From contig CAZVFC010000001.1 of assembly GCA_964625855.1 (NCBI GenBank), forward strand, positions 201,756 to 265,755: 64,000 bases of DNA, read 5' to 3'. Made by a program: the position numbers and the translations under genes. A model generated the notes under the pieces. That model saw only the letters and a program-made list of their open reading frames with translations. It had not been told where the DNA came from and made no database searches. Of this stretch, positions 3,789 through 61,654 are shown piece after piece. The DNA comes from an uncultured Verrucomicrobiota bacterium. GTDB lineage: Bacteria; Verrucomicrobiota; Verrucomicrobiia; Limisphaerales; UBA8199. Each line of letters opens with the position of its first letter. The first letter of the stretch is position 1.

Positions 3789-3846
3789 GTAGGGCGGGCG
3801 TCTCGCCTGCCCTTCCCGGCCGAGGCAGGCGAGACGCCTGCCCTAC
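3789..3846. repeat. Nested palindromic element (GTAGG...CCTAC family) between convergent genes; probable bidirectional terminator-like hairpin
   Basis: Arms GTAGGGCGGGCGTCTCGCCTGCCC (3789-3812) and GGCAGGCGAGACGCCTGCCCTAC (3824-3846) are near-perfect reverse complements. The element starts 5 nt after the nadE stop. The TAG stop of the minus-strand gene 3843..4619 lies inside the CCTAC end. Confidence 0.85.
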
Positions 3847-14400: not shown

Positions 14401-17400
14401 ACGACGTCTTCGTTCTCGCTGAGGACATGGCCCCGCTGATCAGCACCCAACCGCAAAGCCAGACCGTGCCTGCCGGAGACCCTCTAACGCTGAGCGTCGT
14501 AGCGTTTGGCACGCAGCCGCTGAACTATCAGTGGCTGCTGAACGGCACCAACCTCGACGGCGGCACGGGGAGTTCGCTTTCCTGGTCGGGCGTCCAGATG
14601 GCCGACGCGGGCACTTACTCAGTCTTACTTTCCAACCGTATCAGCACCACCATGAGTTCAAATGCTCTGGTGACCATCTATGTGCCGCTTTGTGTATCAG
14701 CACCGTCTGGTCTCGTCAGTTGGTGGGCAGCCGAAGGTAATGCCTCAGACGTATTTGGGACCAACAACGGTGTCCTTCAGAATGGAGCCGGGTTCGCGAG
14801 CGGCAGAGCAGCACAAGGTTTCGATCTCACTGCGGCAACCAGCTATGTCGAGGCACATGCCAGCCCAAGCTGGGCCTTGGGAACAAATGAGTTCTCGATT
14901 GAGCTTTGGGTGAAGTTTGTCTCGCTGGGAGGCAGCCGGGTATTTGTCGCGCATGACCAAGGTCCATACAATGCGAACAAGTGGATTTTCTGGCTGAACG
15001 ATGGGCAACTGCAGTTGCACCTTAATAGCCCAAGCTTGGGCCCGACTTACATTGGGTCCGGCTCCTTTGCCCCCGTGTCAAACCGCTGGTATCACGTGGC
15101 CATTACTCGTAGCGGACCACTCTTCTCGTTCTACCTCGACGGCGCCCTGAACTCGACCGCTACGAGCAGCGTCTCGATTCCCGACGCCAATGTACCGCTG
15201 ACCATAGGACAGGCAGAGAACTTGGCCTACCTAGGGGGATTTGCAGACGAAATTGCCATTTACAGCCGTGCACTGGGTGCCAGCGAAATTCGAGACATTT
15301 ACATGGCGGCCAGTGCGGGCAAGTGCCAGCCCACAAATGCCCCGTCCATCCTGGCGCAGCCGCAGAGTCAGACAGTTTTCGTTGGAACTGATGTGCGCCT
15401 CAGCGTGGAAGCCGCAGGCACTCGTCCCTTGAGCTACCAATGGACTTTCAACGGAACGAACTTGAGCGGTGCCATTAGCTCGGTGCTGGACCTTGCCAGT
15501 GTCCAACTGTCTGATAGCGGGAGTTACGCGGCGGTGGTCACTAATGCCTATGGCTCGATCACAAGCTCCAACGCGGTCCTGGTGGTCAACCAGGCTCCGC
15601 CCTGCGCCAGCCCACCCTCTGGGCTTGTCAGTTGGTGGGCGGCCGAGGGAGATGCCCTGGATTCGGCCGGAACCAACCATGGCGTTCTTCAGAACGGGGC
15701 TGGCTATTCCAATGGCGAGGTTGGCCAAGCTTTAGACTTCACCGGTGGCACCGGTTACGCTCAGGTAGCTGCCAGTCCGAAATGGGCCTTCGGGACAAGT
15801 GACTTCTCAATCGAGCTGTGGGTGAAGTTTGCGTCGCTGGGTGGAAGCCGCGTCTTCGTTGCAAGCGACCAAGGCGGGGGCAATTTAAACAAATGGATTT
15901 TTTGGTTGAATGCAGGCCAGCTACAGCTGCACCTCAATGGCCCTGCTGTAGGTCCAACTTACCTCGGGTCGGGTGCCTTCAATCCCGTGTCGAACCGCTG
16001 GTATCACGTCGCCGTTACACGGAGCGGATCACTCTTTTCGTTTTACCTCGACGGCTCGCTGAATTCCACCGCGACGAGCACTGTGGCGGTGCCTAACGCC
16101 AACGCGCCGCTGACCATTGGCCAAGCGGAGAGTCTTGCCTACCTCGCAGGTTATGAGGACGAGATTTCTATCTACAATCGCGCGCTGACTGCCGGCGAAG
16201 TTCAATCCATTTACAACGCGGGCAGCTCAGGCAAATGCCAGTTGACAAATCCGCCTTCGATTTTAACTCAGCCACAGGGACGGACGGTGTTCGCGGGAGC
16301 CGGTGTGACTCTTAGCGTGACAGCGGCGGGCCACCGCCCACTAAGCTACCAGTGGACCTTCAACGGGACGAATCTGACGTGGGCTGTCGGCGCTGCCTTG
16401 AGCTTCACGAACGCGCAGCTTTCTGACAGCGGCAGCTATGCAGTGATAGTTGCCAATGCTTACGGCTCGGTGACCAGTTCTCCCGCAGTGTTGGTGGTTA
16501 ATCCTGCTCCGCCCTGTGCCGCTCCACCTTCCGGCCTCATCAGTTGGTGGCCAGGCGAGGGCACTGCTAATGATACGGTGAGCACTAAGAACGGGACGCT
16601 GCAAGGGGGGGCAACCTTTGCCTCTGGCGAGGTGGGGCTCGCTTTCGCTTTCGGCACTTCGGGGAGTTATGTGCACGTTCCCGACAGCGATCTCTGGGCA
16701 TTCGGCACCAGCAGCTTCGCCATCGAGCTGTGGGCCAATTTCAATGCGATCCCCGGCTCGCCTTACAGTGAGCCTCGGGGCGGCACGCTTGTCGCCAACG
16801 ACGAGGGGCCATATAACGTGAAGAAGTGGTGGTTTGCCCTGGGGGGAGGGCTGCTAACCTTCCATATCAATTCCCCTGGGCTGGGATCGGTCTTCTTGGT
16901 TCGCGCCCCGTTTACACCGGTCACGAACCAGTGGTATCACCTGGCTGTCGTGCGCAGTGGTAGTGTCTTCACGATGTTTCGCGATGGGGTTGCGATCGGT
17001 TCAGAGACAAATAGTATGGCCATACCCAACCCAAGCGCACCTCTAACCATCGGTCGAGCAGAGGATTTCTACTTCAACGGCCGACTTGACGAAGTTAGCG
17101 TATACAACCGTGCGCTCTCCGCGGGTGAGGTCGCGGCCATATATAGCGCTCGCAGTTCGGGCAAGTGCGGCCTTATGCCCGCCCTTCAGACGCCGCCGTC
17201 CAACCAGACCGTGGAGTGTTCGAGTAACGCCAACTTCTCGGTCACTGCCACCGGGTTGCCACCCTTGGCGTATCAGTGGTTCTTTGGCACGAGCGCTCTC
17301 CCCGGGGCGACCAACACGCAGCTCACCCTGACCAATGTCGGCTTCGCCCAGGCTGGAGCTTATTCCGTCCTCATCACCAACATTTTCGGCAGTGTAACCA

Positions 17401-23427: not shown

Positions 23428-23900
23428 CGGTCAATCCGTCAATCCCATGGCAGACCTTGGTCCTGGAGCCATAGAACCGGTGCCGGGACGGCGCTGGTGA
23501 GCCGGTGATTGTTTGCGATTAAGGTCAGTTTGGCGGTGCACAACTTAGCGCCAGACTTTAGTTCAACGGAGGTTGAGCGCAAGTTCATTTACCCCCCTGC
23601 GCGGGCTGGGCGCACAGTCTGGCTGCTCAAGCGGCGGCCCAGGACCCGATGGCCTCGGCAGTCAACCGGGCTAACGGCAAGCGTGCGCGGGACATCTGCT
23701 CAACCGGGCCGCCGCTTTAGCAGCCAGCGCTAGGTCCTGTACTTATAGCGGATCGCGTCGCCGGGTGTCTGTCAGGCTCAGCACTACACTTGTTGTAGGG
23801 GTTAACCCTACACGCCCTATGGGGGTGTGCGGCCAGACGCACACTTTGCGGCGTTGGGCGCGTGGGCCAGACTGCACGGCGAATGCATGATACCCTGGAA

Positions 23901-23969
23901 GGAGCGCGGACATTCTTGTCCGCCTGCCGAATGGTGCGCAAGACGGGCGGACAGGAATGTCCGCGCTCC
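23901..23969. repeat. Palindromic element with GGAGCGCGGACA...TGTCCGCGCTCC arms
   Basis: Arms at 23901-23924 and 23946-23969 are reverse complements with one mismatch. Each arm contains its own small hairpin (GCGGACA-N3/4-TGTCCGC). It lies in the 635-bp non-coding gap upstream of the 24.0-35.4 kb cluster. Confidence 0.85.
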
Positions 23970-24062
23970 TTCTCGCCTACACCCTGGCCAGACTGCGCCC
24001 GCAATGATTAACGGTTTGCATTCAGTTGACTATTCCTTAAATTGATAGGGCGAACGGGCTCA

Positions 24063-41776: not shown

Positions 41777-42955
41777 ATGAATCCCCAGGTTGGGTGTGCC
41801 GCACTTGGCCGGCGCACGTCGCTTTCGACCGTGGGCCTGCTGATCTCGGCACTGCTGGCCATGTTTCGGACCTGGGCGGCAGACCCGCAACCAACGGCCC
41901 CCATAGCCACTGACGGAGGCAGGTCCCTCCGCGAAGCCTATGATCGGCTCTTCACCATCGGCGTGGCCTTGGACGGTTACCTGCCGGACAACTACAACGC
42001 GGCTGAACTGGCGTTAATCCGAACGCAATTCTCTGCCCTCACGCCGGCGAATTGCATGAAGATGACTCACCTGCAGCCCGAGCCGGGGCGGTTCAATTTC
42101 CGGATGGCGGATGCTTTCGTGGCCTTCGCGGCTTCTAACCAACTCAAAGTCTGCGGCCATTGCCTCGTGTGGGCGAAGGACGAGCGCACGCCGGAATGGG
42201 TCTTCCGGGACGGCGGAAAGCCCGCCAGCCGCGAACTGTTGCTGGAGCGCATGCAGACGCATATCCAGGCCGTGGCCGGCCGCTACCGGGGCAAGGTCAG
42301 CTCCTGGGATGTCGTCAACGAGGCCCTGGATGATGGCACGAACTTCATCCGGCCCTCGAAGTGGTTCAGTACGCTCGGCGAGGAGTTTATCGTGAAGGCA
42401 TTTGAGTATGCCCGCCAAGCCGAGCCGGAGGCCGTGCTGATTTACAATGATTACAATGTGGAATGGCCGGCCAAACGCGCGAAGCTCCTGCGCCTGCTGC
42501 GCCTGCTCCAGGAACGGCAGGCGCCGATTCAGGCCGTCGGCATTCAGGGCCATTACGAGCTGGATACTGTGCCTTACCAGGACCTTGAGGAGACCATCTC
42601 CGCCATCCAGAGCCTTGGGCTGAAGGTCATCATGACCGAATTCGACCTGGACGCCATCCCCAGAGCCAGGTGGTGGGCGGACGGCGGCAAGCATCGCCCT
42701 GAGCTGGCGCGGCTGAATCCTTACGCCGAGGGCTGCCCGCCCGACGTGCTGCAACGGCAGGCCGAGCAATACGGGAAACTCTTCCACATCTTTCGCCAGC
42801 ACGCCGATGTCATCACGCGCATCACCTTTTGGGACCTGCACGACGGGCGCAGTTGGCTCAATCATTTTCCGTGGGAGCGAGTCAACCACCCCCTCCTCTT
42901 TGACCGGGAGGCCCGCCCCAAACCGGCCTTCGGGGCCGTGTTGCGTGGGGAGTAG
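41777..42955 (+). CDS. Glycoside hydrolase family 10 endo-1,4-beta-xylanase
   Basis: The ORF track starts at 41507, but that part overlaps the upstream gene and the terminator. ATG 41777 (MNPQVGC...LLISALLAMFRTWAADP) gives a signal peptide. GH10 motifs WDVVNEAL and IMTEFDLD are present. Confidence 0.88.
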   Translation: MNPQVGCAALGRRTSLSTVGLLISALLAMFRTWAADPQPTAPIATDGGRSLREAYDRLFTIGVALDGYLPDNYNAAELALIRTQFSALTPANCMKMTHLQPEPGRFNFRMADAFVAFAASNQLKVCGHCLVWAKDERTPEWVFRDGGKPASRELLLERMQTHIQAVAGRYRGKVSSWDVVNEALDDGTNFIRPSKWFSTLGEEFIVKAFEYARQAEPEAVLIYNDYNVEWPAKRAKLLRLLRLLQERQAPIQAVGIQGHYELDTVPYQDLEETISAIQSLGLKVIMTEFDLDAIPRARWWADGGKHRPELARLNPYAEGCPPDVLQRQAEQYGKLFHIFRQHADVITRITFWDLHDGRSWLNHFPWERVNHPLLFDREARPKPAFGAVLRGE

Positions 42956-43004
42956 GGACGGGAAAGGGCCTGCGACGGCGCCTGCGCCCTGGAATCTGGA
43001 CATT

Positions 43005-43104
43005 CTGCATATCCCCTTGGCTCTAGCATCCACTGGATTCGCTAAGGTTTCCGGGCACCGCGTCTCCGAGATTCCGCAGGGGCTAGAGCAAAGGGGATAT
43101 GCAG
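43005..43104. repeat. 100-bp element bounded by 23-bp inverted repeats
   Basis: CTGCATATCCCCTTGGCTCTAGC (43005-43027) and GCTAGAGCAAAGGGGATATGCAG (43082-43104) are reverse complements with one mismatch, separated by a 54-bp spacer. Confidence 0.8.
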
Positions 43105-43142
43105 ATTTGGGCATTTTCCGCGGGGCCGAATCCTGAAATGAT

Positions 43143-43319
43143 GAGATCACTGAGCCCAAGCCTGCGAGTCGCAATCCCAAAGGAATTGAATCACCGAACC
43201 CAGGCTTGTGAGTGGCAATCCCAATGGGATTGAATCACCGAGCCCAGGGTTGCGAGTGGCAATCCCAAAGGGATTGAATCACTGAGCCCAGGCTTGTGAG
43301 TGGCAATCCCAAAGGGATT
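43143..43319. repeat. Array of four contiguous ~44-bp REP-like repeats
   Basis: Units at 43143-43187 (degenerate), 43188-43231, 43232-43275 and 43276-43319. The consensus is GAATCACYGARCCCAGGSTTGYGAGTGGCAATCCCAAWGGGATT. Each holds the hairpin CAATCCC-AAA-GGGATTG. There are no spacers. Confidence 0.9.
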
Positions 43320-43422
43320 GAATCACTCAGCCCAGGGTTGCGCGCGGCGCGCTACCCTGGGTGCGCGATGGATTAGGGCGTCAACCCTGAAAGGGTTGCA
43401 TCGTTTGTCCCTTTCACCGCAG

Positions 43423-43878
43423 TCAATCCCACACATACCGTTCGTCGTATGCAAGTTCATACCGCTTGAGCAATAGCCGGAACTCATCCTGAAATGAAAC
43501 CTTGCGGTGATGCTGCTCCTGCTCGGCGATGTAGCGCCGCACATCCTCAATTTGCGAGGCGCCAATCGAGAACATTCCGTAGCCGTTCTGCCAGCCAAAG
43601 TCCCGCATCCCGGCAACCCGCTCCTTGACCCAAAGCGACGAGCCGCGCTTCACCTCCTTGACCATTTCCGCCGCCGCGCAGGTGCGTGACAGGCTGGCGA
43701 GCAGGTGGACATGATCTTCCACGCCGCCGACGATGATGGGCTGGCAATCCAGGTGCTTGAGAATGCCTCCGAGATAGTGGTGGCATTCTTGCCGCAGCGC
43801 GGCGTCGCGCAGCAAGGGACGGCGGTCTTTGGTGGAGAAGACGGTATGCACGAGAATCCTGGCCAATGATTGCGGCAT
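43423..43878 (-). CDS. tnpA: IS200/IS605-family Y1 (HUH) transposase, REP-associated (RAYT-like), copy 1
   Basis: MPQSLARILVHTVFSTKDRRP...VEDHVHLLASL (HUH)...RRYIAEQEQHHRK (catalytic Tyr region)...DERYVWD. The start is taken at the ATG giving MPQSL, the usual family N-terminus. Confidence 0.9.
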   Translation of the reverse strand: MPQSLARILVHTVFSTKDRRPLLRDAALRQECHHYLGGILKHLDCQPIIVGGVEDHVHLLASLSRTCAAAEMVKEVKRGSSLWVKERVAGMRDFGWQNGYGMFSIGASQIEDVRRYIAEQEQHHRKVSFQDEFRLLLKRYELAYDERYVWD

Positions 43879-44042
43879 GCCGACGAGAATGGATTGGGCG
43901 GCGCGGGGATGCAACCCTTTCAGGGTTGGAGGTATATTGGGGCGCACACACCCAGGGTTGCGCGCGGCGCGCTACCCTGGGTGCGCGATGGATTAGGGCG
44001 TCAACCCTGAAAGGGTTGCATCGTTTGTCCCTTTCACCGCAG

Positions 44043-44498
44043 TCAATCCCACACATACCGTTCGTCGTATGCAAGTTCATACCGCTTGAGCAATAGCCGG
44101 AACTCATCCTGAAATGAAACCTTGCGGTGATGCTGCTCCTGCTCGGCGATGTAGCGCCGCACATCCTCAATTTGCGAGGCGCCAATCGAGAACATTCCGT
44201 AGCCGTTCTGCCAGCCAAAGTCCCGCATCCCGGCAACCCGCTCCTTGACCCAAAGCGACGAGCCGCGCTTCACCTCCTTGACCATTTCCGCCGCCGCGCA
44301 GGTGCGTGACAGGCTGGCGAGCAGGTGGACATGATCTTCCACGCCGCCGACGATGATGGGCTGGCAATCCAGGTGCTTGAGAATGCCTCCGAGATAGTGG
44401 TGGCATTCTTGCCGCAGCGCGGCGTCGCGCAGCAAGGGACGGCGGTCTTTGGTGGAGAAGACGGTATGCACGAGAATCCTGGCCAATGATTGCGGCAT
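44043..44498 (-). CDS. tnpA: IS200/IS605-family Y1 transposase (RAYT-like), copy 2
   Basis: Translation identical to copy 1, offset by +620 bp. Confidence 0.9.
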   Translation of the reverse strand: MPQSLARILVHTVFSTKDRRPLLRDAALRQECHHYLGGILKHLDCQPIIVGGVEDHVHLLASLSRTCAAAEMVKEVKRGSSLWVKERVAGMRDFGWQNGYGMFSIGASQIEDVRRYIAEQEQHHRKVSFQDEFRLLLKRYELAYDERYVWD

Positions 44499-44662
44499 GC
44501 CGACGAGAATGGATTGGGCGGCGCGGGGATGCAACCCTTTCAGGGTTGGAGGTATATTGGGGCGCACACACCCAGGGTTGCGCGCGGCGCGCTACCCTGG
44601 GTGCGCGATGGATTAGGGCGTCAACCCTGAAAGGGTTGCATCGTTTGTCCCTTTCACCGCAG

Positions 44663-45118
44663 TCAATCCCACACATACCGTTCGTCGTATGCAAGTTCAT
44701 ACCGCTTGAGCAATAGCCGGAACTCATCCTGAAATGAAACCTTGCGGTGATGCTGCTCCTGCTCGGCGATGTAGCGCCGCACATCCTCAATTTGCGAGGC
44801 GCCAATCGAGAACATTCCGTAGCCGTTCTGCCAGCCAAAGTCCCGCATCCCGGCAACCCGCTCCTTGACCCAAAGCGACGAGCCGCGCTTCACCTCCTTG
44901 ACCATTTCCGCCGCCGCGCAGGTGCGTGACAGGCTGGCGAGCAGGTGGACATGATCTTCCACGCCGCCGACGATGATGGGCTGGCAATCCAGGTGCTTGA
45001 GAATGCCTCCGAGATAGTGGTGGCATTCTTGCCGCAGCGCGGCGTCGCGCAGCAAGGGACGGCGGTCTTTGGTGGAGAAGACGGTATGCACGAGAATCCT
45101 GGCCAATGATTGCGGCAT
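44663..45118 (-). CDS. tnpA: IS200/IS605-family Y1 transposase (RAYT-like), copy 3
   Basis: Translation identical to copy 1, offset by +1240 bp. The longer track ORF (to 45343) is an artefact of the different upstream flank. Confidence 0.9.
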   Translation of the reverse strand: MPQSLARILVHTVFSTKDRRPLLRDAALRQECHHYLGGILKHLDCQPIIVGGVEDHVHLLASLSRTCAAAEMVKEVKRGSSLWVKERVAGMRDFGWQNGYGMFSIGASQIEDVRRYIAEQEQHHRKVSFQDEFRLLLKRYELAYDERYVWD

Positions 45119-45190
45119 GCCGACGAGAATGGATTGGGCGGCGCGGGGATGCAACCCTTTCAGGGTTGGAGGTATATTGGGGCGCACACA

Positions 45191-45276
45191 CCCAGGGTAG
45201 CGCGCCGCGCGCAACCCTGGGCTGAGTGATGCAACCCCTTGGGGGTTGGGCTGCGTGATGCAAGCCCTTTGGGATA
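45191..45276. repeat. Right-flank inverted GC hairpin plus two REP-like hairpins in the opposite orientation to the left array
   Basis: 45191-45230 is the exact reverse complement of 43322-43361. It is followed by GATGCAACCCCTTGGGGGTTG and a degenerate GATGCAAGCCCTTTGGGAT. Confidence 0.85.
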
Positions 45277-45416
45277 GACGCCATTTCCGTCTGCAAAACG
45301 TCCAAACGCCAGGGCGCCTGCGCCGGCAGTGCCGGCCCAGCAAAATTGATCAGGCGCCGCAGTTTTGCGCGGGGCGGAGGTTCCCTTTAGCCTGAACGTT
45401 TCATGCCTGCAAGAGC

Positions 45417-45477
45417 GGCGCGCGGGCATCTTGCCCGCTTTGCGCGCCCGGACGACCAAAGCGGACAAGATGTCCGC
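45417..45477. repeat. Two short GC hairpins downstream of deoC (terminator-like, no U-tract)
   Basis: GCGGGCA-TCT-TGCCCGC at 45422-45438, with outer GGCGCGC/GCGCGCC pairing, and GCGGACA-AGA-TGTCCGC at 45461-45477. Confidence 0.6.
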
Positions 45478-45520
45478 GCTCCGGTCTGTTGGCGTTTCGT
45501 TCTGGGGAGGAATATCCGGC

Positions 45521-46315
45521 TTAGGATCCTCCTGACCCAATCGCTCCACCCCGGCTGGGGGATGGCACGCCCGCTTTCTCGGCGGCTTCGCGGCGACGGT
45601 ATTCGTCCAACATCGCGGCGGTGGCTGTGGCTCCACAGCGCGAGCAGCCGAGGTCGCGGACCCGAATCAGGCCGTCCAGGTCACGCACACCGCCAGCCGC
45701 CTTTACCTGGACTCTTTCGGACACGCTCGCGCGCATGAGAGCCAGGTCGTGTTCCGTGGCCCCCTTGTAGTTGTAGCTGCCGTCGGGCTGCTTCACGAAT
45801 CCGTAGCCGGTGGAGGTCTTCACCCAATCGGCGCCGGCGCGTTCGCAGAGCTGGCAGAGCTTCTGCTTGAAGTCGTCGCTGCTCAGGCCGGCGCCGCCCT
45901 TCGCGAGGTAGTCGGTCTCCAGGATCACCTTCACCTTCGCGCCGCGACCGTGCGCCTCGTCGCAGACCGCCTTTACGTCGCGTTCGACGTAGTCCCAATC
46001 GCCCGAAAGCGCCTTGCCGAGGTTGATCACCATGTCAATCTCGACCGCGCCATCTTTGCACGCCAGCTCCGTTTCATAACGTTTGGCTTCGGTAATGGAA
46101 TTGCCGTGCGGAAAGCCGATGACGGCGCCGACCCGCACGCCCGTGCCGCGCAGCAAATCGGCGGCTCGTTTGACGGCGTACGGTTTAATGCAGACGGAGG
46201 CCACGCCGTATCGGGCGGCCAGCTTGCACCCGTCCTCCAACTCCTGATCCGCCATGGTCGGATGCAGGAGCGAGTGGTCAATCATCTTGGCGAGCTGTTC
46301 GTAGGTGTATTTCAT
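45521..46315 (-). CDS. deoC: Deoxyribose-phosphate aldolase
   Basis: MKYTYEQLAKMIDHSLLHPT...VCIKP...VKAAGGVRDL (Schiff-base Lys region). The track ORF extends to 46453, but ATG 46315 gives the canonical N-terminus. Confidence 0.88.
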   Translation of the reverse strand: MKYTYEQLAKMIDHSLLHPTMADQELEDGCKLAARYGVASVCIKPYAVKRAADLLRGTGVRVGAVIGFPHGNSITEAKRYETELACKDGAVEIDMVINLGKALSGDWDYVERDVKAVCDEAHGRGAKVKVILETDYLAKGGAGLSSDDFKQKLCQLCERAGADWVKTSTGYGFVKQPDGSYNYKGATEHDLALMRASVSERVQVKAAGGVRDLDGLIRVRDLGCSRCGATATAAMLDEYRRREAAEKAGVPSPSRGGAIGSGGS

Positions 46316-46594
46316 GGTTGGGGTCAAGCTGCTGGCACTGAGTGAATTTGGTGGGGGCGTTGACACCACCACCGCTCTCGGCAGTCGGGACATGCGCGGA
46401 GCGCGGCTGGCCTCAGCCGCAGCACGTGCGATAGCGAGTGGGTTTCGAGACACGGGGGGAAGCCCGCATCGTCGGGGGTGCTGCGGCTGAGGACAGCCGC
46501 GCTCCGGTGGCGGTGTCGGGATGCGCCCATTTGGTGGCGTCCCGGCTGTAGAAACCGATGCATCGGTTCGGTGCGGGGTGATCCGGCTTCCCGG

Positions 46595-58768: not shown

Positions 58769-61654
58769 CTAGCCGCGCGCGCTTTCCTGAACCGCCCTCA
58801 CGCACCTCCCGCAGATGGTCGGATGCTCGGCGACTGATCCGATATCGGTCTCCCAATGCCAGCAGCGTTCACACTTTTCGCCGGCGGCTTTGCTGACGGA
58901 AATTGTGAGGGCCGCCTCACCCGCCGGCCGGAACTCGAGCTGGGAAACGTTGAGCAGCTCGCGCAGCGATTCCTGATGCGCCTGAGCGGCTGCCACCGCC
59001 GGACTTGAGCCGACAAAGGTCAGTTTCGCCTCGAGGGCCTTGCCGATCGCTTTGGCCTGCCGGGCCTTCTCCAGTTCCGGCAAAGCCAGCTCGCGCAGCT
59101 CGAATAGCGCCTTCCAATCCGCCCGCTCAACCTCGGGCCGGACAAAGTCCAGGTGTTGCCAGGTCAGTTGATGCACGGAAGCAACCGTCTTGCCCGGCAC
59201 ATACTCCCACGCCTCATCCGCCGTAAACGCCAGCACCGGCGCGAGCATCCTGCAAAGGCCGGCGACCATCCGGTGCAACACGGTCTGCGTCGAGCGGCGC
59301 CGGGGAGAGTTCGCCGCATCGGTGTAGAGGCGGTCCTTGACCACGTCGTGATAGACGGCGGAGAGTTCGACTGCCACAAACTGGCTCACCTTCTGGTACA
59401 CGACGTGAAACTCGTATCGGTCATAAGCGGCTATGACTTCCTGCTCCAATTGAGCAAACGCACCCAGGACCCAGCGGTCCAGGCCGGTTAGCTTGTCATC
59501 GGGCACGGCATGTTTGGCCGGGTCGAAGTCGTAGAGGTTGGAAAGCTGGTAGCGCAGGGCATTGCGGAGACCGCGATATGTCTCGGCCACGGTCTTGATT
59601 CGCTCCTCGCTGACGATGATGTCATTGCGGAAGTCCTGAGATGCCACCCAAAGGCGGACAACGTCGGCGCCCCACTTCTTGACGTACGCCTCCGCAGTCT
59701 GTGGCTTCTCGTAAGCGCCCTGTGTCTGCTTGCTCTTGGAAATCTTCTCGCGGTCGGCATCCACCATGAAACCGTGGGTCAGCACGGTCTTGAAGGGCGC
59801 GGCGCCGTTGCCCGCCAGCGAGAGGAGCAGCGAGGACTGGAACCACCCGCGATGCTGGTCGCTGCCCTCCAGGTACATGTCGCACTGGAAGCGTTTGTTG
59901 CTGCCGCGGATTTCCGCGCGCCGCGCAATCACCGCGCGCGAGGAAGAGCCGGAATCAATCCACACGTCCAGCGTGTCGTTCGACTTGGCGGCGGGCGTCG
60001 GCCCTTTCCAATCCGCCGGCCTGAGAGCGGCCCAGAGCTCGGCGGCAGACCTCTCGAACCAGCTATTCGATCCGTGCTGCTCAAAGAGGGCTGCGGCGTT
60101 CCGGACGATCTGGGCGTCGAGTATGGCATTGCCCTCCGCGTCGTAGAACGCCGGGATCGGCACGCCCCAGGTGCGCTGGCGTGAGATGCACCAGTCGGGC
60201 CGGCCCTTGACCGCGGCCTCGATCCGGCTCTTGCCCCAGTCAGGCACCCAGTTCACGCGGTTGATCTCTTCCAGCGCTCGCTCGCGGAATGAACGTAGGA
60301 CAGGCGTCTCGCCTGTCCCTGTCTGGTCTGTTGCAGCCGAGGACAGGCGAGACGCCTGTCCTACCTCATGGTCAACCTCGATGAACCACTGATCCATGGC
60401 GCGGAAGATGATCGGCGTCTTGCTGCGCCAGCAGTGCGGATAGCTATGGTGATAGTTTTCCTGGTGCAGTAGCGCCTTGCGCACACGCAACTCGTGCAGC
60501 ACCGCCTCGTTCGCCTCGCTCTTGCCGTGCTTCTCCAGGATGGCCTTGCCAATCATCTCGGCGGGCATCTGTTGTTCCTGCGGCAGATCGCTCGTGTAGG
60601 CGAACTTCCCGTCATCGTCCACCGGCGAGTAGATGGGCAGGCCGTGCTCCGTGCCGAGGTGGTAGTCATCCAAGCCGTGCCCCGGGGCAATATGAACGAA
60701 GCCCGTGCCGGTGGCATTGTCCACAAAGCTGTCCCCGGCAAAGAACTTTCCCCTGCGGTTGCAGAACGGATGCTGGTATTCGAACTGGCTCAGGTGCCCG
60801 CCGTCGAGGCTGCGGACAATCTGATAGCCCTGCCAGCCGCACTTCTCGGCCACCGTCGGCAGCAGGAGGGCGGACACGATGTATTGCTCCTGACCCACCA
60901 GCACCAGCGAGTAGCTAAAGGTGGAGTTGTAGGCCACCGCGAGGTTTGCCGGCAGAGTCCAGGGCGTCGTGGTCCAGATCACCACCGACGTGCCCGGGTG
61001 CCCGACCAGCGGGAACTTCACATACGCGCTCTGGCTCACGTGATCCTTGTATTCCACTTCCGCCTCCGCCAGCGCGGTTCGGCAGGGTATGCTCCAATAC
61101 ACCGGTTTCTTGCCGCGATACACGAAGCCCCGCTCCACGATGTCCGCGAAGAGTCGCAGTTCCTCGGCCTCGTATTCCCGGGCCAGCGTCAGGTAAGGAT
61201 TGTCCCAGTCCCCGAGCACTCCGAGCCGCTTGAACTGGACGCGCTGGATGTCAATGTACTTGCGCGCGTAGGTTTCGCACGCCTTGCGAATAGTGGCCGC
61301 GTCGGTGGCGGTGTCGCCCGCTTTGCGCATGTCCTGGCTGACCTTGAACTCGATGGGCAGCCCGTGGCAATCCCAGCCCGGCACATACGGCGCACTAAAA
61401 CCGCGCAGAGTTTTGTACTTGATGATGATATCCTTGAGAATCTTGTTCAGGGCGGTGCCGATGTGCACATCGCCGTTAGCGAAAGGCGGCCCGTCGTGCA
61501 GGACAAACCTCTCCGCGCCGGCGCGCTGAGCCTGGATAGCGGCATAAAGCCCCGCGGCTTCCCACTGTTTGAGCCGCGCCGGCTCCCGCGTCACCAGGTC
61601 TGCCTTCATCGGAAAATCGGTCTGCGGCAGGTTCAATGTGCTCTTGTAGTCCAT
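58769..61654 (-). CDS. ileS: Isoleucyl-tRNA synthetase
   Basis: 961 aa with the HIGH motif (PFANGDVHIGTAL), the KMSKS motif (KISKSK), WCISRQRTWGVPIP, and a C-terminal Zn finger (CERCWHW...CGRC). Confidence 0.97.
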   Translation of the reverse strand: MDYKSTLNLPQTDFPMKADLVTREPARLKQWEAAGLYAAIQAQRAGAERFVLHDGPPFANGDVHIGTALNKILKDIIIKYKTLRGFSAPYVPGWDCHGLPIEFKVSQDMRKAGDTATDAATIRKACETYARKYIDIQRVQFKRLGVLGDWDNPYLTLAREYEAEELRLFADIVERGFVYRGKKPVYWSIPCRTALAEAEVEYKDHVSQSAYVKFPLVGHPGTSVVIWTTTPWTLPANLAVAYNSTFSYSLVLVGQEQYIVSALLLPTVAEKCGWQGYQIVRSLDGGHLSQFEYQHPFCNRRGKFFAGDSFVDNATGTGFVHIAPGHGLDDYHLGTEHGLPIYSPVDDDGKFAYTSDLPQEQQMPAEMIGKAILEKHGKSEANEAVLHELRVRKALLHQENYHHSYPHCWRSKTPIIFRAMDQWFIEVDHEVGQASRLSSAATDQTGTGETPVLRSFRERALEEINRVNWVPDWGKSRIEAAVKGRPDWCISRQRTWGVPIPAFYDAEGNAILDAQIVRNAAALFEQHGSNSWFERSAAELWAALRPADWKGPTPAAKSNDTLDVWIDSGSSSRAVIARRAEIRGSNKRFQCDMYLEGSDQHRGWFQSSLLLSLAGNGAAPFKTVLTHGFMVDADREKISKSKQTQGAYEKPQTAEAYVKKWGADVVRLWVASQDFRNDIIVSEERIKTVAETYRGLRNALRYQLSNLYDFDPAKHAVPDDKLTGLDRWVLGAFAQLEQEVIAAYDRYEFHVVYQKVSQFVAVELSAVYHDVVKDRLYTDAANSPRRRSTQTVLHRMVAGLCRMLAPVLAFTADEAWEYVPGKTVASVHQLTWQHLDFVRPEVERADWKALFELRELALPELEKARQAKAIGKALEAKLTFVGSSPAVAAAQAHQESLRELLNVSQLEFRPAGEAALTISVSKAAGEKCERCWHWETDIGSVAEHPTICGRCVRAVQESARG
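60295..60364. repeat. 70-bp nested palindromic element (GTAGG...CCTAC family) inside the ileS coding sequence
   Basis: Arms at 60295-60318 (GTAGGACAGGCGTCTCGCCTGTCC) and 60341-60364 are perfect reverse complements, with a 22-nt spacer. It is translated as VGQASRLSSAATDQTGTGETPVLR within IleS. Confidence 0.9.

Follow-up and report, generated by a model that had tools for sequence, protein, structure and literature searches.

A stretch of 64,000 nucleotides from an uncultured Verrucomicrobiota bacterium (contig CAZVFC010000001.1; the whole stretch is called the window here) carries, between a GH10 gene and deoC, a hairpin-flanked Y1 transposase gene that has recently been triplicated. The element is of a known kind, and its state is unusual. 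An earlier reading of the letters alone (the sequence-only reading) had described three identical head-to-tail copies of 620 bp, and this description holds base for base: self-comparison and a repeat finder give a match at period 620 over 43331-45198 (3 × 620 + 8 bp, spanning 1,868 bases) without any mismatch, and every base is the same in the three units. The motif CAAYCC-N5-GGRTTG of the hairpins has 10 matches in the window, all of them at the array locus, against 0.02 expected by chance; because of this excess and of the 1,868 mismatch-free bases, chance cannot explain the 620-bp repeat. Each unit contains a hairpin (hpA), a second hairpin (hp2), a minus-strand open reading frame (ORF) of 151 codons and an inverted hairpin (hp2'), so that the four parts proposed for the unit were all located in each copy (Table 1). 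The array is closed by a fourth large hairpin (hpA'), which is the exact reverse complement of hpA and differs from hpA at 3 of 31 positions. Inverted arms of 60 nt, 93% complementary and including an outer hairpin (hp1), lie at 43304-43363 and 45189-45248. A scan for promoters and terminators gave weak consensus matches only, recurring with each unit, and an Rfam scan of 42700-45700 gave no match at the gathering score; the hairpins therefore match no curated RNA family.

The element behind the array is a 151-aa HUH/Y1 (IS200-type) gene between two inverted modules of ~105 nt, each built as hp1-hpA-hp2. In 148 related loci the gene stands between inverted repeats (median 96 nt), and an alignment of 118 modules shows a fixed layout from the outside inward: hp1 (consensus AATCCCAAAGGGATT), AATCAYYCAG, hpA, a variable spacer of ~22 nt, hp2 and AATCA. 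A conserved T.T mismatch in hpA lies between GTTG and CTAC, neither of which varies. Covariation in the 118 modules supports all three helices: pairing holds in 93.7% of cells, and in 15 of 23 pairs both partners change. None of 500 shuffles did as well, and the values for slid controls were 24-53%. The covariance model made from this alignment (R1) finds complete modules in the window only at the two outer ends of the array, with partial matches at the two internal joints and no module elsewhere in the 64 kb, i.e., no dispersed copies. Because complete modules stand only at these outer ends, the 620-bp unit represents only the element's core, which begins with hpA and stops just short of hpA'. 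The description of the repeat as a transposase unit is thus right about the gene and the hairpins, but not about the extent of the element. At the two ends of the element the T.T form of hpA lies on opposite strands.

It is also apparent from the relatives that the gene and its hairpin modules move as a unit. Near-identical elements (92-96%) occur in unrelated flanks, with homology stopping at the outer module ends (hp1), ~665-715 bp apart, and two 93%-identical elements lie 12 kb apart on one contig (L060 and L062). In the closest subfamily (the window, L001, L084, L085, L087, L151 and L164) homology extends further, to an outer inverted repeat, CTGGAGTTTGGACRTTTT. This outer repeat is confined to the closest subfamily and was never seen without the gene in the sequences examined.

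The protein had been read as an HUH/Y1 transposase, and a profile search agrees: it scores 80.3 bits against Pfam Y1_Tnp (PF01797; cut-off 23), covering profile positions 4-121 of 121, and narrowly passes the NCBIfam IS200/IS605 model NF033573 (60.1 bits; cut-off 55). Against NF047646, the curated model of REP (repetitive extragenic palindromic)-associated tyrosine transposases (RAYTs), it stays below threshold (17.2 bits; cut-off 80). Both the protein and the family profile match the solved IS608, ISDra2 and Sulfolobus TnpA in the PDB, and the solved E. coli TnpA_REP gave no match, even with the family profile at E <= 10. H56-V-H58 (HVHLL), Y116 and Q120 align with HIH, Y127 and Q131 of IS608 TnpA; in the 26 homologues compared, Y116 and Q120 do not vary, and conservation of H56 and H58 is at least 90%. 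Judged by its homologues, the gene belongs to a very large Verrucomicrobiota family; 7,966 of the 8,000 candidates scored were significant, those from sources that name the organism are metagenome-assembled genomes of Verrucomicrobiota, and the best is 95% identical to the protein of the window. An exact-sequence look-up found no record of the 151-aa sequence itself in the public collection, and there is therefore no independent assembly of the array.

History of the locus and tandem forms in relatives

None of 160 related loci found through the transposase (80 from reference genomes and 80 from metagenomes) is syntenic with the flanks of the window, and synteny was found only by a search with the neighbouring DeoC protein followed by inspection of the contigs of its closest relatives. 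One of these, a 69-kb Joint Genome Institute (JGI) contig (L164), shares both flanks with the window (97.5% identity over 9,468 bp and 96.7% over 10,473 bp) and has one copy of the element at the same site; hpA lies towards GH10 and hpA' towards deoC, as they do in the window, and the gene has lost ~370 bp internally. In a second contig (L166), whose DeoC is 91% identical, the site is empty: GGCGCCTGCGCC comes after the stop codon of GH10 and leads into the deoC-side sequence. P0124, with 98 bp between deoC and GH10, is also element-free as judged on gene spacing, and in L163 two unrelated genes occupy the site and the element is absent. Since L164 has a single copy at the same site and L166 is empty, the element entered between GH10 and deoC before the window and L164 split, and was single-copy then; for the same reason the triplication is lineage-specific and recent. 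Not one difference separates the three copies over 1,860 bp, whereas the element differs by 2-8% from the L164 remnant and the flanks differ by 2.5-3.3%. This suggests that the triplication is at least ~10 times younger than the split, or that the copies are being homogenised. The window, the single-copy L164 and the empty site thus form a dated before-and-after series for one rearrangement.

Tandem copies had been called atypical of RAYT and IS200 elements, which is correct. A second gene copy within 5 kb was found at 0 of the 80 reference-genome loci, and a second, partial copy at 1 of the 80 metagenome loci; screens with the model and with regular expressions for the hp2'-hpA-hp2 arrangement brought up two further loci. 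The tandem in L141 has a period of 595 bp and copies 96% alike, the second gene being internally deleted, and its joint is a hybrid hairpin with a 5' part of the downstream-end type and a 3' part of the upstream-end type, which places the crossover at positions 18-20 of 31. L083 and L086 represent a single locus, whose protein shares 89-91% identity with that of the window; the first copy has kept the module, the ATG and the last codons and lost the ORF between them, and its joint hairpin, like those of the window, is entirely of the downstream type. L021 probably has a similar tandem with a joint hairpin of the upstream type. In all tandem loci the exchange lies inside hpA, but at differing positions. 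The tandem state is rare in this family, but it recurs.

Three other candidates were rejected. L065 appeared to have a junction-type arrangement only as a false positive of the regular expression, its hp1 resembling hp2, and two public ENA contigs of ~620 bp are neither collapsed arrays nor circles: L162 is a linear contig whose flanks are ordinary, and L161 runs into an Illumina adapter at its end. In L161, which encodes a homologue, the untrimmed adapter AGATCGGAAGAGCACACGTCTGAACTCCAGTCAC occupies 583-620 and is joined in the middle of hpA', an assembly artefact in a public contig.

In many relatives gene-less inverted doublets of the modules stand beside the gene, some of them in tandem, and a few lie 1-5 kb away. 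Directly after the gene there are three such doublets with a period of ~375 in L055 (5513-6490), four gene-less modules with a period of ~111 in L086 (5075-5514) and a gene-less tandem array in L120 (10564-11218). Some of these arrays may be remnants of gene-carrying tandems after loss of the ORF, like the first copy in L083.

The joint between copies and routes to the array

On the same strand hpA and hpA', 620 bp apart, are identical at 28 of 31 positions; hpA is nearly palindromic, and the left hpA and the inverted right hpA' are therefore also direct repeats of each other. Both internal joints read ...GCGCACACA, which is the right-hand spacer, and then the left-hand T.T form of the hairpin, CCCAGGGTT..., whereas the single-copy locus has ...CACACA CCCAGGGTA... 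at the matching point. Since the joints pass from the right-hand spacer into the left-hand hairpin form, the exchange took place within the first 8 shared bases of the outer stem of hpA and hpA', CCCAGGGT; likewise, because the fourth hairpin is the reverse complement of hpA, the boundaries of the repeat coincide with the 8 nt common to both. The joint regions (hp2'-hpA-hp2) each fold as one long palindrome of about -46 kcal/mol with z of about -10 (-46.5 kcal/mol and z -9.8 for the junction 43905-44025). No target duplication is present at the internal joints, and a 12-bp direct repeat flanks the whole element.

We consider it probable that the array was made by unequal recombination or template switching between the end hairpins, followed by homologous unequal crossing-over. 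In the first step, an unequal exchange or a replication template switch between the two copies of hpA, with its crossover in the shared 8-nt outer stem, would duplicate the segment hpA-hp2-gene-hp2'-spacer, and extrusion of the hairpins would probably favour it. In the second, ordinary unequal homologous recombination between two 620-bp copies would add the third. Such a route may run through slippage or through RecA-dependent exchange, and the transposase would be dispensable for it. The crossover point varies between loci, which argues for an exchange driven by homology rather than for a fixed nick site, and REP sequences are described as known join points of tandem duplications in the part of PMC7661048 that cites Shyamala 1990. 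Of the routes named in the sequence-only reading, hairpin-mediated slippage and unequal recombination are supported. The amplification is in these terms real in kind, recent and mechanistically ordinary. Several points weigh against this account. The copy number of three is known from assembled sequence alone; the first step needs an exchange over 8 nt of perfect identity (28/31 overall), which is short for RecA-dependent recombination; and the joint hairpins of the window and of L083/L086, being wholly of the downstream type, are also what one would expect if a site-specific event had occurred at the hairpin's foot. Nicking by the encoded HUH enzyme may, moreover, stimulate the exchange.

A route in which the encoded enzyme does the joining seems unlikely. 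The Y1/HUH protein would recognise the T.T hpA, nick at its foot and join the strand to the corresponding site, either at the other, near-identical hairpin or on the sister chromatid, which would resemble failed termination in rolling-circle replication and yield unit-length head-to-tail copies. It would account for a unit that runs exactly from one 5' hairpin foot to the next on the + strand, and for a joint type common to the window and L083/L086. The T.T mismatch with GTTG and CTAC, invariant in 118 modules, is as expected of an imperfect palindrome recognised by a protein, the HUH motif, Tyr116 and Gln120 align with the catalytic residues of IS608 TnpA, and after a first duplication the T.T hairpins, then direct repeats on the + strand, would be possible substrates for excision. 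However, the joints lie elsewhere in L141 (positions 18-20, hybrid) and in L021 (upstream type), no cleavage site is known for the family, and at the single-copy locus the right-hand hairpin on that strand has the A.A form; the conserved mismatch suggests that this form is not recognised.

We give slightly less credit still to the idea that the Y1 enzyme itself both makes the array and can resolve it, nick-and-join events releasing or re-inserting unit-length circles of single-stranded DNA (ssDNA) that hold the gene and one hairpin; on the + strand, T.T-form hpA does recur as direct repeats at intervals of 620 nt. If the array were made by the enzyme, the tandem would represent a rolling-circle-like amplification state of a REP-associated transposase and would offer a direct handle on how such transposases copy DNA. 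The interest of the locus comes mainly from the intermediate character of the family, together with this small chance of an enzyme-driven tandem state.

It is about as improbable as the nick-and-join route to the joint that the array is an artefact of assembly or polishing, with fewer or more copies in reality or with copies homogenised in polishing. The absence of any divergence over 1,860 bp would fit an artefact, as would an array known from the assembly alone, an exact protein without a record in the public collection and the 0 of 80 reference-genome loci with a second copy within 5 kb. Yet the joint (spacer' followed by the T.T hpA) is absent from a single-copy locus, and for single-copy reads to yield it, a switch would have to occur within 8 nt, below any assembler overlap; at least two copies are therefore real. 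Tandem repeats are usually collapsed by assemblers and not expanded, and diverged tandems of the same build are unambiguously assembled in L141 and L083/L086. The sequence-only reading had left a very recent amplification and an assembly artefact side by side; the single-copy L164, the joint and the diverged tandems favour the former, and the latter is unlikely.

IS200/IS605 elements transpose via circular ssDNA, inserting beside a short target, which stays at the left end. By analogy, an excised circle might have re-inserted beside its own end or into the same target, as the sequence-only reading had also proposed, but such repeated transposition is very improbable: the repeated unit is without the real ends of the family (hp1, hp1' and the outer inverted repeat of the subfamily), those ends are inverted and not same-strand hairpins, and the only duplication resembling a target is the 12-bp direct repeat around the whole element, with none at the internal joints.

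Comparison with known elements

The accepted view of REP-associated Y1 transposases is that they are domesticated genes, immobile and present in single copy. The family described here falls between them and IS200: it still moves with its modules, it leaves gene-less doublets and it recombines at its own hairpins. With REPtrons, the RAYT-REPIN systems of which E. coli TnpA_REP and the Pseudomonas RAYTs are examples, it shares a small HUH/Y1 gene between inverted REP-type hairpins, neighbouring inverted doublets of those hairpins that lack the gene, some of them in tandem (PMC6006769, PMC3116915), and vertical retention of the element at its locus, seen here in the site shared with L164. It differs from them in a protein that falls below the curated RAYT model and does not match the solved E. 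coli enzyme, in ends that are each a 105-nt three-hairpin module rather than a single REP, and in a gene and modules that are mobile as a unit. It also differs in carrying three copies of the gene; RAYTs are typically single-copy and duplicate at low rates (PMC5581495, PMC8266576). No dispersed hairpin copies are present in the 64-kb window. The invariant CTAC of hpA is GTAG on the complementary strand and lies inside the stem beside the mismatch, whereas the GTAG tag of E. coli REPs lies 5' of the hairpin (PMC8266576).

With IS200/IS605 elements (the TnpA of IS608 and ISDra2) the family shares the best sequence matches, the aligned HUH motif, catalytic Tyr and Gln, imperfect hairpins near the ends and, as in IS200 proper, a lack of tnpB. 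The sub-terminal hairpins named in the sequence-only reading are thus present, and no tnpB/iscB partner was found, in line with its statement that this is not a standard IS605 arrangement; its comparison with IS200-type ends goes no further, because the hairpins sit in long inverted modules as in a REPtron and not on the same strand. IS200/IS605 ends have no inverted repeats and carry both hairpins on one strand, whereas the inverted repeats here are ~100 nt long, and IS200/IS605 elements insert 3' of a fixed tetra- or pentanucleotide without target duplication, whereas five insertions here have direct target repeats of 12-21 bp.

Two further systems resemble the array itself. In REP-mediated tandem duplication (Shyamala, Schneider & Ames 1990) short palindromes likewise serve as the join point and copy number is then raised by homologous unequal crossing-over; here, however, the segment is only 620 bp and consists of the hairpin-bracketed transposase gene, and recombination takes place between the two inverted ends of a single element, which are direct repeats only through their near-palindromy. 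The tandem REPIN clusters of Pseudomonas fluorescens SBW25 are also ordered arrays of near-identical hairpin units with flanks (PMC3116915); they lack a transposase gene, which here lies inside the repeated unit, and they resemble the gene-less arrays of L055, L086 and L120. Taken by its sequence the enzyme looks to be an IS200/IS605-type Y1 transposase, and by its architecture (inverted end modules, gene-less doublets and vertical retention) the element resembles a REPtron. It lacks defining features of both IS200/IS605 and RAYT elements, and we place it in the continuum between IS200 and RAYTs, with a rare and recurrent tandem state. Near-palindromic end hairpins would make such elements hot spots for tandem amplification and deletion, which affects assembly and annotation.

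Insertion sites and neighbouring repeats

The target-like 12-bp repeat GGCGCCTGCGCC stands on both sides of the element in the window and in L164, and once in the empty site of L166 (6860-6880). Four other insertions of the subfamily (L001, L084, L087 and L151) are flanked by 18-21-bp direct repeats of hairpin-like targets, such as GCAGGCGAGACGCCTGCG in L001 and TCTCCTCCAGAGGAGGAGA in L087. In L001 and L084 the target that the Y1 element duplicated on insertion is a palindrome of the type GCAGGCG-N5-CGCCTGC, a type that also belongs to the unrelated palindrome families of the window. Y1 transposases are not expected to leave target duplications that vary in length and span a palindrome, and we offer no explanation for them.

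Table 1. Coordinates in the window of the array, the end modules and the repeats around them
Feature	Position	Strand	Remarks
12-bp direct repeat GGCGCCTGCGCC, left copy	42977..42988	.	resembles a target-site duplication
Outer inverted repeat, left arm CTGGAATCTGGAC...	42989..43001	+	split by the 111-bp insert, resumes at 43113-43119; from comparison with L164
111-bp insert resembling a miniature inverted-repeat transposable element (MITE)	43002..43112	.	terminal inverted repeats of ~24 bp, TTCTGCATATCCCCTTGGCTCTAGC / GCTAGAGCAAAGGGGATATGCAGA; alignment gap against L164
Array of 44-bp units	43146..43330	+	hp1 CAATCCCAAAGGGATTG, AATCACYGAG and 5' half of hpA; copies 78-88% alike
Complete hp1-hpA-hp2 module, 3' side of gene	43297..43403	+	R1 100.1 bits, E 5e-19; DNA fold -35.3 kcal/mol, z -7.2
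Repeat unit 1	43331..43950	-	hpA 43331-43361, hp2 43382-43398, gene 43423-43878 (-), hp2' 43912-43928, spacer
Repeat unit 2	43951..44570	-	same as unit 1; junction hpA 43951-43981, gene 44043-44498 (-)
Repeat unit 3	44571..45190	-	same as unit 1; junction hpA 44571-44601, gene 44663-45118 (-)
hpA CCCAGGGTTGCGCGCGGCGCGCTACCCTGGG	starts 43331, 43951, 44571		31 nt
hp2 CAACCCTGAAAGGGTTG	starts 43382, 44002, 44622		17 nt
ORF of 151 aa	43423-43878, 44043-44498, 44663-45118	-	
hp2' CAACCCTTTCAGGGTTG	starts 43912, 44532, 45152		
Complete inverted module, 5' side of gene	45147..45255	-	hp2' 45152-45168, hpA' 45191-45221, hp1' 45232-45248; R1 92.7 bits, E 2e-17
29-bp repeat of spacer + hp1'	45218..45273	+	1.9 copies; Tandem Repeats Finder (TRF)
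Outer inverted repeat, right arm	45295..45312	-	CTGGCGTTTGGACGTTTT on the minus strand
12-bp direct repeat GGCGCCTGCGCC, right copy	45313..45324	.	

The neighbourhood of the array is unstable, its micro-arrays of 44-bp and 29-bp units differing in copy number from L164. On the left, TRF reports a period of 44 with 4.5 copies over 43146-43342, against only ~2 hp1 units in L164, and the breakpoints of the micro-arrays, too, lie in or beside hpA. The 111-bp insert on the same side looks like a MITE, since it has terminal inverted repeats and splits the outer repeat of the Y1 element, to which it does not belong; no second copy of it is present in the 64-kb window. Other, unrelated palindrome families also occur in the window, namely a GTAGGGCAGGCGTCTCGCCTGCC type (3789-3846 and 60295-60364), a GGTAGGGACGCCTCGCCGAGGCGTC type (1575-1642), a GGAGCGCGGACATTCTTGTCCGC type (23898-23972 and 45417-45482) and a pair of 29-nt inverted arms upstream of deoC (46397-46506). 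Three diverged direct repeats with a period of 912 bp and 65-85% identity at 14667-16741 look like a repeated domain in a large gene and are unrelated to the array.

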